This document shows, piece by piece, positions 3,673 through 37,042 of a DNA stretch of 64,000 nt. The stretch comes from Candidatus Moraniibacteriota bacterium (GTDB lineage: Bacteria > Patescibacteriota > Minisyncoccia > Moranbacterales > UBA1568), in the NCBI GenBank assembly GCA_030648835.1, contig JAUSGT010000001.1, positions 133,010 through 197,009 on the forward strand. The letters are read 5' to 3'. Under the pieces are notes generated by a model. That model was not told where the DNA came from, did no database searches, and saw only the letters and a program-made list of their open reading frames with translations. A program made the position numbers and the translations under genes. Every line of letters begins with the position of its first letter. Positions within the stretch are counted from its first letter, which is position 1.

Positions 3673-5484
3673 ATGTCACTTCGCCAACAAAACATCCGCA
3701 ATTTTTGCATTATTGCGCACATCGATCACGGTAAGTCCACGTTGGCTGATCGTCTGCTTGAGCTGACCAAAACGGTGGAAATGCGCAAAATGAAAGAGCA
3801 GCTTTTGGATCAGATGGATCTGGAACGGGAGCGTGGCATCACCATCAAGCTGCAGCCGGTGCAGATGCATCATACCTACAAAGGTGTTGAGTATATGCTG
3901 AATCTGATCGATACTCCGGGGCATGTGGATTTTCATTACGAGGTTTCCCGCTCGCTAGCGGCTGTCGAGGGAGCCATTCTTCTCGTGGATGCGACCAAAG
4001 GCGTTCAAGCTCAGACATTGGCCAATCTTTACTTGGCTGTTGAACAAGGATTGACTATCATTCCGGTGGTGAACAAAATTGACCTGCCCAACGCGCAAAC
4101 GGAAAAAACAAAAAAAGAAATCGTGCATATTCTCGGCTGTCGAGAAGAAGATATCCTTCTGGCGTCCGGCAAGACGGGGCAGGGAGTTGAGCAGGTGTTG
4201 GAGCGGGTGATCGAATTGGTTCCTGCGCCGGGTGGGGATGAAGCCAAGCCACTTCGCGCGCTCATTTTTGATTCCGTCTACAACACGTACAAAGGAGTGG
4301 TTGCCTATGTGAAAGTCGTCGATGGTACCGTCAAGCGTGATGATGCACTCCATATGCTCGGAACGGAGAAAGAGGGGGTGACAGTGGAAGTCGGGTTGTT
4401 CAAACCGGGACTGGTGCCAACCGATATCCTGCGGGCCGGCGATATCGGCTATATTGCGACGGGGCTGAAAGAAGTGGGTCATTGTCGGGTGGGCGATACG
4501 GTGACGTGGAGGGTAGGAGAGCGTGAGAAAATGATTGCCTTGCGTTTGCCGGGGTACAAAGAAATCAAACCGGCCGTCTATGCTAGTCTGTATCCGGTGG
4601 AGGGGGATGATTATACGCTGATGCGCGATAGCTTGGATAAATTGAAACTCAACGATGCGGCATTCACTTTTGAACCGGAGAGCAATCAGGCCTTGGGCAG
4701 AGGTTTCCGTTGTGGTTTCTTGGGACTGCTTCATTTGGAAATCATTCAGGCGCGGTTGGAGCGTGAATTCAATCTGACACCGACCATCACGACACCGTCA
4801 GTCGTTTACGAATTGGAACTGCACGGCAGCGAAAAACGTATCGCGCTTTATTCACCCTCCGATTTGCCGGATCCGGCCAGCATCGAGAAGATCTATGAGC
4901 CGTATGTGGCCCTCTCCATCGTGACACCGAGCGAATACCTCGGTAATGTGATGTCACTTTCTCAGTCAATTCGGGCGGATTACAAGAATACCGAATACAT
5001 TGATGCGGAGCGAGCCCTCCTCACCTTCGAAGCGCCACTTATGGACGTCATCGTCAATTTTCATGATGATTTGAAGAGTGCGACATCCGGGTACGCATCG
5101 ATGAATTATGAGCCGATCGAGTACCGCGAGAGCGATGTGGTGAAATTGGAAATTCTTGTGGCCGGCGAACGCATCGATGCGTTCGCGCGAATGATTCCCA
5201 GGCGCGCCGCGTATGGCGAGGGCAAGCGTGTCGTGGAAAAGTTGAAAGAAGTTATCCCCAAACAGAACTTCGCGGTGGCTATCCAGGCGGCTATCGGTGG
5301 CAAGGTTATCGCTCGGGAAACTATTGCGGCCTATCGCAAGGACGTGACAGGGTATCTCTATGGCGGCGACTTCTCACGCAAGAAAAAGCTGCTGGAGAAA
5401 CAGAAGCGGGGAAAAAAGAAAATGAGAGACATCGGCAAAGTGAACATTCCCAGTCAGGCTTTTCTGGCTGTTTTGAAGAAATAG
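3673..5484 (+). CDS. lepA: elongation factor 4 (LepA)
   Basis: 603 aa. G-domain motifs AHIDHGKST and DTPGHVDF, plus the LepA-specific C-terminal domain. Confidence 0.95.
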   Translation: MSLRQQNIRNFCIIAHIDHGKSTLADRLLELTKTVEMRKMKEQLLDQMDLERERGITIKLQPVQMHHTYKGVEYMLNLIDTPGHVDFHYEVSRSLAAVEGAILLVDATKGVQAQTLANLYLAVEQGLTIIPVVNKIDLPNAQTEKTKKEIVHILGCREEDILLASGKTGQGVEQVLERVIELVPAPGGDEAKPLRALIFDSVYNTYKGVVAYVKVVDGTVKRDDALHMLGTEKEGVTVEVGLFKPGLVPTDILRAGDIGYIATGLKEVGHCRVGDTVTWRVGEREKMIALRLPGYKEIKPAVYASLYPVEGDDYTLMRDSLDKLKLNDAAFTFEPESNQALGRGFRCGFLGLLHLEIIQARLEREFNLTPTITTPSVVYELELHGSEKRIALYSPSDLPDPASIEKIYEPYVALSIVTPSEYLGNVMSLSQSIRADYKNTEYIDAERALLTFEAPLMDVIVNFHDDLKSATSGYASMNYEPIEYRESDVVKLEILVAGERIDAFARMIPRRAAYGEGKRVVEKLKEVIPKQNFAVAIQAAIGGKVIARETIAAYRKDVTGYLYGGDFSRKKKLLEKQKRGKKKMRDIGKVNIPSQAFLAVLKK

Positions 5485-35068: not shown

Positions 35069-36382
35069 ATGTTGGATATTCAATTCATCCGCAGTCATAA
35101 AGAAGACATTTCTAAAGCCATCACGGATAAGGGGCTCAATTTGGATGTGGAGAAATTATTGGCGAAGGCAGAGGAGCGAGTAGCACTTATTCAAGAAGTC
35201 GAGGAACTCAAGAGCTTGAAAAACGATATCAATGAATTGATACAAAAAGCCAAGACTCCCGAGGAACGCGCGGAGATTATCGTCAAAGGAAAAGAGATCA
35301 AAGTCAAACTCGATGAGAGAGAACCTTTGTTTTTGGCGGTCAAGAGTGAATATGATACTCTCATGGCGCAAGTGCCGAATATTCCGAGTGAGGATACGCC
35401 GATCGGAAAAGACGAGAGTGAAAATGTTGTCTTGCGGCAAGTCGGCAACAAACCTGAGTTCGAATTCCCGGCTAAGGAACACTGGGAGTTGGGAGAAGCG
35501 CTGGGGATTATTGATGTGGAACGGGCAGTCAAGGTGAGCGGATCGCGGTCTGTTTATCTCAAGGGAGATCTCGTACTTCTGGAATTTGCTCTTATGCAGT
35601 TTGCTTTTTCAGTTCTGACGAGCGAAGAAAAATTGGCAGCCATAATTACTGAGAATCAACTTAAGGTAGCCACTACGCCATTTATTCCTGTTCTTCCGCC
35701 CGTTTTGATTCGGCCAGAAATAATGGCAAGAATGGCTCGTCACGATCCTGAAGAAATGTACGCCATTGAGAGAGATAATCTGAATCTGATAGGAAGCGCC
35801 GAACATACGTTGGGTGCGATGTATGCTGATGAAATTTTAGAAGCTGCTCAGCTTCCTATTCGCCTGGTGGGGTTTTCGGTAGCTTTTCGCCGTGAAGCTG
35901 GCTCCTATGGCAAAGATATGAAGGGGTTTCTTCGGATGCACCAATTCGACAAACTGGAAATGGAATCATTCACTCTGCCCGAACAATCGCGAGATGAGCA
36001 GGACTTTATGGTAGCTATTCAAGAACACCTGATGAAGGCATTGGGTATTCCCTATCAAGTTGTGGCGATCTGTACTGGAGATATGGGTAAACCTGACATA
36101 CGCCAGATCGATATTGAAGCGTGGATGCCAGGACAGAATCGATATCGAGAAACGAACACGTCGGATCTTATTGGGGACTTTCAAGCACGGCGGTTAAATA
36201 CAAAGATCCGAAGAGCGGATGGAAAAACAGAATTTGTTCATATGAATGATGCAACTGCCTTTTCGCAGCGCCCCCTCATTGCTATTCTCGAGAATTACCA
36301 GCAAGCCGATGGGAGCGTCGTGGTGCCGGAAGTTTTGCGCCCCTTCGTCGGCAAGGATGTGATTAAACCGAAGAACAGTTAA
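35069..36382 (+). CDS. serS: seryl-tRNA synthetase
   Basis: 437 aa. N-terminal coiled-coil arm, class II catalytic core with the conserved motifs. Confidence 0.9.
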   Translation: MLDIQFIRSHKEDISKAITDKGLNLDVEKLLAKAEERVALIQEVEELKSLKNDINELIQKAKTPEERAEIIVKGKEIKVKLDEREPLFLAVKSEYDTLMAQVPNIPSEDTPIGKDESENVVLRQVGNKPEFEFPAKEHWELGEALGIIDVERAVKVSGSRSVYLKGDLVLLEFALMQFAFSVLTSEEKLAAIITENQLKVATTPFIPVLPPVLIRPEIMARMARHDPEEMYAIERDNLNLIGSAEHTLGAMYADEILEAAQLPIRLVGFSVAFRREAGSYGKDMKGFLRMHQFDKLEMESFTLPEQSRDEQDFMVAIQEHLMKALGIPYQVVAICTGDMGKPDIRQIDIEAWMPGQNRYRETNTSDLIGDFQARRLNTKIRRADGKTEFVHMNDATAFSQRPLIAILENYQQADGSVVVPEVLRPFVGKDVIKPKNS

Positions 36383-36440: not shown

Positions 36441-36494
36441 ACTGCTTATTGCCTGCCTGTCCGGTAGGCAGGTTGTTTATTTACAAATTTGTAT

Positions 36495-36570
36495 GGGTGC
36501 GTAGCTCAGTCGGTAGAGCAGTGGCCTTTTAAGCCAACGGTCGAGGGTTCGATTCCCCCCGCACCCACCA
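36495..36570 (+). tRNA. tRNA-Lys (anticodon UUU), CCA encoded
   Basis: Acceptor GGGTGCG/CGCACCC pairs perfectly. D-arm GCTCAGTCGGTAGAGC. Anticodon loop CTTTTAA. T-arm GAGGG TTCGATT CCCCC. Discriminator A plus CCA. Confidence 0.85.
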
Positions 36571-36576
36571 TAAAAC

Positions 36577-36612
36577 TAGGACTCCACTTTTGGAGTCCTT
36601 ACTTTTTACAGA
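36577..36612 (+). terminator. terminator after tRNA-Lys
   Basis: AGGACTCC acttt GGAGTCCT then TACTTTTTAC. Confidence 0.6.
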
Positions 36613-36624
36613 GAAGCTACAAGT

Positions 36625-36750
36625 GGGAATCGAAGGGCACGAGTAGGATGCGAGTAAGCGAGCATCCTGTGTGTAGTGCTCAGGCTCCGAGTCGGTCATC
36701 GACTCTGAGCTCAGACTCGAAGAGAGCGAGGAGGATTCCCCCCGCACCCA
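36625..36750 (+). ncRNA. structured tRNA-Lys-related RNA module R1 (about 126 nt)
   Basis: Ends in GAGGAGGATTCCCCCCGCACCCA, mimicking the tRNA-Lys T-arm and 3' acceptor strand. Internal stems AGGATGC/GCATCCT, GAGTCG/CGACTC and the TGAGCTCA palindrome. The 5' GGGCAC pairs with the internal GTGCTC. Confidence 0.4.
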
Positions 36751-36814
36751 CTATAGGATAACAATAGATAACAAGAACTCCCGAACGGGAAGTTTTTGCT
36801 TTATAAAGAATTGC

Positions 36815-36947
36815 GGGGAATCGAAGGGTGCGAGTAGAATGTGAGCAAGCGAACATTCTGTGTGTAGCACCCAGGCTCCGAGTCGGTCATCGACTCTGAG
36901 CTCAGACTCGAAGAGAGCGAGGAGGATTCCCCCCCCCGCACCCACCA
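36815..36947 (+). ncRNA. structured tRNA-Lys-related RNA module R2 (about 133 nt, ends in CCA), followed by a hairpin terminator
   Basis: Co-linear with R1. Compensatory substitutions keep both stems intact (AGAATGT/ACATTCT; GGGTGC/GCACCC). The 3' end is CGCACCCACCA, identical to the tRNA-Lys 3' end. Terminator at 36950..36990. Confidence 0.4.
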
Positions 36948-36949
36948 AA

Positions 36950-36990
36950 TAAGTACCTTTTCCGTTTCGGAGAGGGTACTTTGTTTTTCT
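36950..36990 (+). terminator. terminator after module R2
   Basis: AAGTACC ...17 nt loop... GGTACTT followed by TGTTTTTCTTTC. Confidence 0.55.
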
Positions 36991-37042
36991 TTCACACAGG
37001 TTACTTTTCTGCTATACTAAGGGCATAAATACATTATTTTTT

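Follow-up and report, generated by a model that had tools for sequence, protein, structure and literature searches.

INTRODUCTION

Integrative elements that accrete in tandem at tRNA genes, including attL-attI-attR arrays and cis-mobilisable elements, are flanked by repeats of the tRNA 3′ end, leave the tRNA intact, pile up in tandem, and carry an identity block that begins inside the tRNA and ends variably downstream. Integron arrays hold short, exchangeable, mixed cassettes whose attC hairpins, imperfect palindromes with conserved ends, are read as folded single strands, with the structure on one strand. Miniature inverted-repeat transposable elements (MITEs) and the REP/BIME, Correia, and RUP elements are small, non-coding, and non-autonomous, with inverted ends, stable transcribed hairpins, and a patchy presence among strains. 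TnpB omega RNAs and the tRNA-homing guides of type V-K CRISPR-associated transposons join a scaffold to a 3′ segment identical to the target and address tRNA 3′ ends. The internal guide of group I introns is ordered P10 then P1. Patescibacteria are rich in tRNA group I introns (PMC13011429). Here we describe two folded modules, R1 (~36622-36753) and R2 (~36812-36947), that follow tRNA-Lys(UUU) in a 64,000-nucleotide (nt) stretch of a Candidatus Moraniibacteriota genome (contig JAUSGT010000001.1; the stretch is called the window below). The modules resemble these systems in the properties just listed and depart from each of them in others.

R1 and R2 belong to a family of structured cassettes that lie beside tRNA genes on the tRNA-sense strand, singly or in tandem, within inverted and direct frames derived from the target tRNA and with no linked protein gene. 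No description of such elements was found in the literature searched, where the motif strings occurred only in unrelated papers, and we found no known family or system for them to belong to; the family of small folded RNA cassettes is apparently undescribed in Patescibacteria. We tentatively favor the explanation, itself somewhat short of probable, that R1 and R2 are units of a non-autonomous structured RNA cassette that is propagated by recombination and rides on the 3′ ends of tRNA genes.

RESULTS

A covarying fold on the tRNA-sense strand

Homologues were identified by a pattern scan and a covariance model. Among 52 genome loci anchored on seryl-tRNA synthetase (SerRS), three other Moranbacteria carried one module each, just downstream of tRNA-Lys (loci L010, L048, and L037); the L037 module has wholly different P2 and P3 sequences in the same architecture (z = -5.7). 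A metagenome scan with the pattern common to these copies returned 101 loci, and a covariance model built from 41 distinct copies scored true copies at 34 to 97 bits (31.7 for a copy cut by a contig end), compared to ≤29.4 for chance pattern matches in coding DNA. The resulting set of 45 homologues (44 distinct) comes from Moranbacteria, one Wolfebacteria-like contig, and unassigned metagenome contigs.

Each unit is ~190 bp and consists of a spacer hairpin, a leader, a body of ~80 to 100 nt, and a tail. The body is a three-way junction in the order P1, GAA, P2, P3: in the window copies, the leader GGGAATC pairs with the tail-start GATTCCC to form P1, which closes the fold, and is followed by the GAA junction, a long P2, and a third arm. 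Pairs were counted for this three-helix junction on the covariance-model alignment of the 45 copies. Paired cells made up 89.7% of the total, compared to 80.6% with shuffled columns and 18 to 66% with slid partners, and the covariation score was 0.268, compared to 0.117 for shuffled columns (reached in 0 of 500 shuffles) and ≤0.099 for slid partners. Double changes occurred at all four P3 pairs, at two P2 pairs, and at two variable P1-extension pairs. P3, whose 3′ strand abuts the 3′ strand of P1, is CUCC/GGAG in most copies and of the GGUG/CGCC type in others. Within the window subtype (type A), the inner P2 stem occurs in the compensated versions AUGC/GCAU, AUGU/ACAU, ACGC/GCGU, and AAGC/GCUU, against a conserved apical loop and a conserved internal loop in which GAG faces UGUGUA. 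RNAalifold run on the raw MAFFT alignment, in which the variable hairpins misalign, recovered P3 alone, and that alignment was replaced by the covariance-model alignment.

In 41 of 44 copies, the sense strand had the more stable fold, with a mean advantage over the antisense strand of 4.8 kcal/mol (p = 2e-8); it also contained 83 G-U pairs compared to 38 on the antisense strand. This strand asymmetry points to RNA, or to single-stranded DNA of the sense strand, rather than to a signal in duplex DNA. Covariation in 44 distinct homologues and the greater stability of the sense strand bear out the proposal of the earlier note on this DNA, made from the two window modules, that RNA structure is under selection, and they indicate that selection acts on the body as an RNA folded from the tRNA-sense strand.

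Frames copied from the neighboring tRNA

The ends of a unit match the tRNA that precedes it. Most tails duplicate the local tRNA in direct orientation, beginning at T-loop position G57; the identity covers 16 to 37 nt, often reaches 3 to 18 nt beyond the tRNA end, and extends to 40 to 60 nt in tandem repeats of whole units. The leader carries the same tRNA in reverse complement, starting at U54 and running into the acceptor 3′ strand, over 7 to 24 nt. Frames also track variant T-loops: a tRNA-Leu with the T-loop TTCAAGTCC has the frame GGACTTGAA...AAGTCC, and a tRNA-Tyr with TTCGAATCC has GGATTCGAA...GAATCC. Because the frames of the homologues follow whatever tRNA lies upstream, we take the tRNA-Lys sequence in R1 and R2 to be a local copy that is not intrinsic to the RNA.

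Several assignments suggested by these ends were rejected. The earlier note had offered a tRNA-like small RNA as one of its two readings, which is not supported: in the window, ARAGORN finds tRNA-Val and tRNA-Lys only, the Rfam tRNA model has no match in R1 or R2 even at E ≤ 10, no cloverleaf forms, only the last ~20 nt of the modules is tRNA-derived, and across the family tail and leader match any upstream tRNA. Nor is the segment that it described as T-arm-like a T-arm. GAGGAG is followed by GATTCC without TTC, and it is a family motif that stays constant whatever the T-stem of the neighboring tRNA. ARAGORN reported no tmRNA; the permuted tmRNA model reached 17.1 bits (gathering threshold, 47) with a match over the tRNA 3′ end. 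A MITE with terminal inverted repeats of its own and a target duplication of fixed length was rejected as well, the inverted segments being copied from the local tRNA and the direct repeat ranging from 7 to 80 nt in length, always with its start at G57.

The leader has two possible partners, the upstream tRNA 3′ half and the downstream tail. Pairing with the former yields hairpins that run from U54 across the spacer to GAA, with stabilities of -69.5 kcal/mol in L063 (z = -10.9) and -63.6 kcal/mol in L131 (z = -10.7) and a z score of -10.9 in L055. Such hairpins, centered on the terminator, very stable in these three loci and modest in the window (z = -4.5), would be in keeping with a cis element of the tRNA transcription unit, in which the inverted copy lengthens the terminator hairpin and marks read-through for RNase III-type cleavage or blocks 3′ exonucleases, body and tail being accessories. 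That explanation accounts for neither the conserved covarying body nor the direct tail copy and the multi-unit arrays, and in L099 and L153 the units follow the tRNA with no terminator between; we regard it as improbable.

The constancy of the boundaries bears on a different alternative, an intron- or ribozyme-like element that targets the T-loop, with the leader as a group I-type internal guide and the body catalyzing or directing cleavage and ligation at 56/57. The 5′ part of the leader would pair with G57 onward (the "3′ exon"), GAA would pair with U54-C56 (the "5′ exon"), and the arrangement seen today would be a DNA footprint. This complementarity is present across three T-loop variants, a resemblance only, and the leader segments stand in the group I order by textbook comparison. 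The sharp, constant U54 and G57 boundaries across those variants, the intron-rich host phylum, a true intron in L068, and a hairpin inserted exactly between TTC and GATTCC in an L065 pseudo-tRNA-Pro also speak for it. Against it, no group I or other ribozyme model matched even at E ≤ 10; the group I core model (RF00028) had no match in the window region or the homologous loci, in a search that does find the L068 intron. The body has only 80 to 100 nt and two hairpins, the pair at the putative splice site (position 56) is C-G and not U-G, the base preceding the tail varies among G, C, and A with body type instead of being a conserved G, the upstream tRNA is intact without splicing, and no reverse transcriptase lies nearby. 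An element of this kind seems to us a poor prospect.

In L065 (760-880), the partial tRNA-Pro copy lies downstream of an intact gene, the inserted element is a 20-nt GC-rich hairpin (CCTGTCTGCCGGCAGGCAGG), and the insertion point, 56/57, is the point at which cassette tails start. In L083 (540-620), the 3′ portion of tRNA-Phe is tandemly duplicated (~35 nt, variable loop to 3′ end) with no cassette, which shows that other kinds of partial tRNA 3′ duplication also occur in these genomes. L100 (4497-4600) has GAATCGAAGGG 13 nt upstream of tRNA-Gly without a body, the match being completed by the T-arm of the tRNA itself; this may be due to chance or to the remnant of a 5′ frame. A tRNA-like 3′ end (GGGGTTCGATTCCCCACATCTCCAC) precedes the cassette in L074 (1290-1340) without an ARAGORN tRNA call and may belong to an interrupted or unusual tRNA gene.

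Distribution and gene neighborhood

Some 35 loci had usable upstream sequence, with a same-strand tRNA 6 to 261 nt (mostly 45 to 67 nt) upstream; nearly every true member with upstream sequence has such a tRNA, while chance matches have none. The adjacent tRNAs represent 14 anticodons: Lys, Arg, Trp, Glu (CUC, UUC), Gly (UCC, GCC), Pro (UGG, GGG), Met, His, Thr, Tyr, and Leu. The units after tRNA-Tyr and tRNA-Leu, which have variant T-loops, were added by a pattern-free search of the loci. One type C locus lies in a Wolfebacteria-like genome (RecG 93% identical), and the family therefore spans at least two Patescibacteria lineages. The other-genome search proposed in the earlier note thus did find homologues linked to tRNA genes, though not to tRNA-Lys alone and without linkage to integrases.

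Presence is patchy. L101, the closest relative with data (SerRS 86% identical to that of the window), has one copy, relatives at 71 to 75% have none, and relatives at 50 to 68% have one. No additional copy was found in four contigs of the closer relatives of the window genome. The window-specific core had 0 matches in viral contigs, where the general pattern had 2, both by chance (≤20 bits, no tRNA nearby). The 64-kb window has two copies only, ~1.05 Mb of loci contained no copy away from tRNA genes, and copy number varies from 1 to 4. A module sits between tRNA-Gly and tRNA-Ala in L068, and modules begin 6 to 7 nt after the tRNA in L099 and L153.

Rfam 15 was run at gathering and permissive thresholds on the window, its R1/R2 region, and ten homologous loci; it returned tRNAs, one 6S RNA, and one group I intron and nothing over the cassettes; the Rfam match that, by the earlier note, would remove the novelty was not seen. 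The 6S RNA gene (94 bits; L149, 4413-4592, − strand) lies directly upstream of a tRNA-Tyr that is followed by a cassette, tRNA-Gly, and more cassettes, making L149 a compact non-coding RNA cluster. The group I intron (89 bits; L068, 2533-2785, − strand) lies in a tRNA cluster of the Wolfebacteria-like contig, which also has a cassette.

Neighbor-gene clustering over ~40 loci revealed no protein family recurring within 5 kb besides lineage synteny, and no integrase, transposase, reverse transcriptase, or RNA-guided effector recurring near the copies. The absence of a recurrent effector counts against the idea that the cassettes are guide RNAs for a protein encoded elsewhere, with the body as scaffold and the tail or leader addressing the tRNA gene or transcript, in the manner of transposon-derived omega RNAs or the tRNA-homing guides of CRISPR-associated transposons. 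A conserved scaffold joined to a variable 3′ segment with the same sequence as a genomic target close by would suit that idea, as would several scaffold types under one framing logic. On the other side, no Rfam guide or scaffold model matched, the supposed guide is partly base paired in P1, and its target lies only tens of nucleotides away in cis, which makes a guide function highly improbable. The specific omega RNA, HEARO, and homing-crRNA classes were rejected for want of a TnpB, IscB, or Cas12k neighbor and of an Rfam match.

The same neighborhoods, together with the fold, decide largely against the second reading of the earlier note, inert leftovers of serial integrase-mediated integration at tRNA-Lys. 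The att-like direct repeats that it described are real and do resemble att sites: three repeats of the tRNA 3′ end stand 183 to 194 nt apart, and in a relative tRNA-Lys seems to serve as an integration site (L160; serine recombinase and GIY-YIG genes). The debris that they were taken to mark is not supported. Units are only ~190 bp, no integrase lies near any copy and no mobility gene recurs, and the interior is constrained, being conserved across lineages with compensatory changes and strand asymmetry and recurring at 14 tRNA anticodons. Moreover, the repeat begins mid T-loop at G57 and does not span a symmetric crossover segment, and the inverted copy of the tRNA end is left unexplained. On present evidence, inert att-site debris is largely refuted, and we give it very little credence.

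The locus in that relative, a Moranbacteria genome whose SerRS is 74% identical, was recovered as L160 (3986-5839) and also as L161. A GIY-YIG gene precedes tRNA-Lys (4243-4318), and a gene for a 520-amino-acid large serine recombinase abuts the tRNA on the opposite strand with a slight overlap; no cassette is present there, and the arrangement suggests an integrated element at the same tRNA-Lys.

Other RNA and element classes were rejected individually. The ends of the modules pair (P1) as in retron non-coding RNAs, but no reverse transcriptase is present in the neighborhood. The R1/R2 differences are mixed transitions and not adenine specific, unlike those between the template and variable repeats of a diversity-generating retroelement. 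A small open reading frame with GGAGG as a Shine-Dalgarno sequence is contradicted by the lack of a following start codon and by the covarying GGUG/CGCC-type pairs of other body types. Hammerhead, twister, hatchet, HDV-like, K-turn, and bulge-helix-bulge structures lack their defining core motifs by inspection and by the Rfam negatives.

Evidence for exchange of bodies between tRNA loci, and mixed arrays

Bodies that are 98% identical occur at tRNA-Gly(UCC) and tRNA-Gly(GCC), each with locally matched frames, and bodies that are 88 to 90% identical occur at Lys, Glu, and Gly tRNAs, with leader and tail matching each local tRNA. These sequences provide evidence that cassettes have been exchanged between tRNA loci. 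Different body types also coexist under one frame: in the L131 array, tRNA-His precedes three or four units whose bodies measure ~100 to 200 nt, L089 has a long body and then a short one, and L128 has two subtypes. One and the same unit has a direct repeat of 16 nt in L135 and of 68 nt in L125.

These patterns can be set against the possibility that the cassettes are a host small RNA (sRNA) family with no mobility of its own, beneficial, made from tRNA operons, and acting on or with the cognate tRNA. It might, for instance, mimic the 3′ half of that tRNA, or compete or serve as a chaperone while the precursor folds and is processed at its 3′ end. Frames would then be kept matched only through local gene conversion and selection for P1. 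The covarying, sense-strand-specific fold agrees with such a role, as do the modules inside tRNA operons (L068, L099, and L153), the switch-like choice of the leader between the tRNA 3′ half and its own tail, and the absence of mobility genes nearby. Patchiness among close relatives, unrelated body types within arrays, 98%-identical bodies at different tRNA genes, repeats that run into non-tRNA flank, and a copy number of 1 to 4 are more typical of a selfish or duplicative element, and for that reason we consider a purely host-serving sRNA possible but unlikely.

Longer units (~150 to 200 nt) with tRNA-derived framing and different bodies were seen in L131 (1130-1520), L089 (1320-1470, − strand), L055 (7960-8120), L125 (5560-5700), and L140 (1480-1640, − strand). 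A CGATGAATGCGA...GCATTCAGCGCTG hairpin or a GAGCTGGCGAG motif is common to some of them, and two long-body regions had no Rfam match at a permissive threshold; the long units look like further cassette families. Separately, a palindromic hairpin, CCTGCCTGCCGGCAGGCAGG (window positions 36451-36473), had 10 matches with ≤3 mismatches in 1.2 Mb, on unrelated Patescibacteria contigs (L021, L023, L044, L054, L057, L061, L065, L131, and L142). It occurs as a terminator, inside a cassette P3 loop (L131), and directly after a cassette tail (L061), and a related variant forms the terminator of the window SerRS gene. This hairpin may be a small mobile element.

The tandem array in the window

In the window, R1 and R2 lie among housekeeping genes in the order MreC, PBP2, GreA, a class II aminoacyl-tRNA synthetase, tRNA-Val, SerRS (35069-36382), tRNA-Lys(UUU), R1 and R2, a BNR-type lipoprotein, RRF, and an M50 protease. 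The SerRS protein is identical to one from an NCBI Moranbacteria metagenome-assembled genome, and its gene is seen in SRR13727527; the best SerRS matches in other genomes are from Moraniibacteriota, at ≤71% identity. All features described below are on the + strand. The host gene of the array, tRNA-Lys(UUU) (36495-36570), was called by ARAGORN and by the Rfam tRNA model (69.4 bits), and its segment from U54 to CCA (36548-36570) is the source of the frames.

The two co-linear modules described in the earlier note are confirmed by a direct repeat of 119 nt with 92% identity (36625-36743 and 36816-36934, spacing of 191 nt). A 36-nt core occurs exactly twice in the window, compared to 0 occurrences expected by chance. 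The note was also right that each module ends in a copy of the tRNA-Lys 3′ end: GATTCCCCCCGCACCCA(CCA) is found at 36551, 36734, and 36928. The first of these three direct repeats, A1 (GATTCCCCCCGCACCCACCA, 36551-36572), runs from T-loop G57 to the tRNA 3′ end. The R2 tail copy has three extra C residues and keeps ACCA, while the R1 copy has ACTA. What the note had missed is the leader as an inverted tRNA copy: the module 5′ ends (GGGAATCGAA in R1 and GGGGAATCGAA in R2) are the exact reverse complement of the tRNA T-loop region TTCGATTCCC(C).

Between the tRNA and R1, the terminator scan called a terminator-like hairpin (36578-36599). This hairpin caps a longer one, formed by pairing of TTCGATTCCC (36548-36557) to GGGAATCGAA (36625-36634), and the fold of 36548-36636 has a free energy of -29.5 kcal/mol. 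The R1 leader, or 5′ frame (AGTGGGAATCGAA, 36622-36634), was delimited by the inverted repeat and by folding and is an inverted copy of the tRNA T-loop and 3′ strand. Its GGGAATC (36625-36631) is the P1 5′ strand and its GAA (36632-36634) the junction, both invariant or covarying family-wide. Hairpin P2 of R1 (36635-36681) is supported by the minimum free energy (MFE) fold, by compensatory variants in type A members, and by the pair counts. It comprises P2a, GGGCAC/GTGCTC (36635-36640 with 36676-36681), and P2b, TAGGATGC/GCATCCTG (36644-36651 with 36662-36669), with an internal loop of GAG and TGTGTA and the apical loop GAGTAAGCGAG. In the P3 region (36683-36733), the family helix is formed by CTCC (36685-36688) with GGAG (36730-36733), positions that covary as CG, GC, and UA across the family. 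The R1 tail, A2 (GATTCCCCCCGCACCCACTA, 36734-36753), is a direct tRNA-Lys 3′-end copy in which CCA has become CTA, and its GATTCCC (36734-36740) is the P1 3′ strand.

The spacer of the second unit has an imperfect hairpin followed by a T-run (36776-36794), seen in the fold of 36731-36827. The R2 leader (TGCGGGGAATCGAA, 36812-36825), again delimited by the inverted repeat and folding, contains the P1 5′ strand GGGGAATC (36815-36822). Hairpin P2 of R2 (36826-36872) has P2a, GGGTGC/GCACCC (36826-36831 with 36867-36872), and P2b, TAGAATGT/ACATTCTG (36835-36842 with 36853-36860); its P3 region (36874-36924; CTCC at 36876-36879 with GGAG at 36921-36924) is 100% identical to that of R1 over this half. 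The R2 tail, A3 (GATTCCCCCCCCCGCACCCACCA, 36925-36947), is a direct tRNA-Lys 3′-end copy and is followed by the strong intrinsic terminator that closes the array (36951-36981; 14-bp stem and T-run, terminator scan). The earlier note had assigned each module its own terminator. That of R2 is clear, and the hairpin after R1 is imperfect on the + strand and was called by the scan on the − strand only. A window scan found no sigma-70-like promoter upstream of R1 or R2, and the promoter-like site of the next gene (36991-37018) lies 3′ of the closing terminator.

R1 and R2 fold into the same predicted hairpin (z = -3.7 and -3.9), and their differences are confined to one hairpin in which pairing is kept. 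The compensated changes reported earlier were accordingly recovered, in P2a as given above and in the stem AGGATGC/GCATCCT, which becomes AGAATGT/ACATTCT. The stems that the note listed as shared and unchanged, GAGTCG..CGACTC and TGAGCTCA, are present in both modules; they form part of a lineage-specific 29-nt insertion (36696-36724 in R1 and 36887-36915 in R2) that is in no other family member found and that gives an alternative third arm.

The P2 halves of R1 and R2 are only 79% identical. R1 is nearest to L101 (91%) and R2 to L010 (96%), the 3′ halves are 100% identical, including the unique insertion, and the spacers are unrelated. The 5′ halves thus represent two older variants known from other genomes, while the 3′ halves are identical; R1 and R2 are not simple recent paralogues that gained compensatory mutations. 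The mosaic fits gene conversion between two older variants and not a fresh duplication followed by compensatory mutation.

DISCUSSION

Under the explanation that we tentatively favor, a recombination-propagated RNA cassette, the units would spread and multiply as DNA by recombining at the tRNA-tail repeats and at the T-loop block, which is nearly universal. Unequal crossing-over and gene conversion would contribute, as would transfer from one tRNA locus or genome to another. Such recombination would leave the tRNA intact, add a tail copy past each body, and keep leader and tail locally matched. The window array, with three tails and two bodies, would be a mosaic whose 3′ halves were homogenized by gene conversion. 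The RNA would be made by read-through from the tRNA and would fold into the junction closed by the leader-tail helix P1; having a tRNA-like 3′ end and a terminator, it may be able to enter tRNA 3′-end processing. Because the leader can pair with the 3′ half of the tRNA itself, the cassette RNA could act on the cognate tRNA precursor; it could also serve its own persistence alone.

Several points weigh against this explanation. The expression of the cassettes, the ends of their RNAs, and read-through past the intervening terminators are all deduced from sequence. No mobility gene recurs near the copies, and no enzyme or intermediate for movement was found. Ordinary homologous recombination offers no obvious route by which the end of a new tRNA would be gained in inverted as well as direct form, nor does it account for the constant boundaries, with the tail starting at G57 and the leader complement ending at U54. 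In L037, L063/L112, L131, L124, and L150, the tails are not tRNA-like past GATTCCC, and it is with the tRNA itself that the leader has its long complementarity. The consensus fold of the window copies is 5 to 8 kcal/mol less stable than the MFE fold (7.7 for R1), with an ambiguous register in P1. Because GAATCGAAGGG and GAGG..GATTCC were fixed in the scan pattern, conservation there is partly by design and carries no independent weight, and the sampling is biased. Taxonomic checks of the hosts covered two lineages.

A more novel possibility is that the cassettes are a new kind of RNA-programmed element. The leader would serve as the guide, pairing from U54 onward with the 3′ part of a tRNA gene or precursor and so setting the reaction point at 56/57, where the unit would be copied or joined by a ribozyme or a host activity. 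Inverted and direct target copies would then arise automatically, and one body type could colonize any tRNA, in what would be a protein-gene-free, tRNA-homing cassette system in ultra-small bacteria. We judge it decidedly unlikely.

If the recombination-propagated cassette is correct, the family represents an unrecognized class of genetic element in Patescibacteria, folded RNA cassettes without protein genes that are attached to tRNA genes of many identities and take their ends, inverted and direct, from the host tRNA. Lineages with barely charted non-coding RNAs would gain at least one family of conserved structured RNAs, and probably several. The cassettes would also explain the stray "3′ tRNA fragments" and long palindromes beside tRNA genes in these genomes. 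They also raise a mechanistic question, how a target-matched inverted and direct frame is made at one fixed T-loop point. The conservative reading would still be of a new sRNA family, co-evolving with the neighboring tRNA and with clear support from covariation. The observation of the earlier note is thus confirmed and its interpretation borne out in part, and the family is stranger and more general than that note envisaged.

The cassettes depart from each of the systems outlined in the introduction. From tandem accretion elements they differ in their size of ~190 bp, in having no integrase nearby, in their covarying RNA interior, and in the extra inverted copy of the tRNA end; furthermore, one interior is found at many tRNAs, with repeats that are locally matched. 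Unlike integron cassettes, they have no IntI or attI, encode a non-coding RNA, take their palindromes from the adjacent tRNA instead of carrying cassette-specific ones, and are anchored at a tRNA gene. MITEs, REP/BIME, Correia, and RUP elements do not have terminal repeats copied from the target, whereas the cassettes do; the cassettes in turn make no fixed-length target duplication, were found only by tRNA genes, and have internal hairpins that covary in a strand-specific fold. They lack the effector and transposon genes of omega RNAs and type V-K guides, their 3′ segment is partly paired, and they match no family of that kind. With the internal guide (P1/P10) of group I introns, including those in Patescibacteria tRNAs, they share an ordered 5′ complementarity around a fixed point in the tRNA, 56/57, but they have no catalytic core, terminal G, or U-G pair and no Rfam match, their body is far smaller, and the tRNA beside them is uninterrupted.

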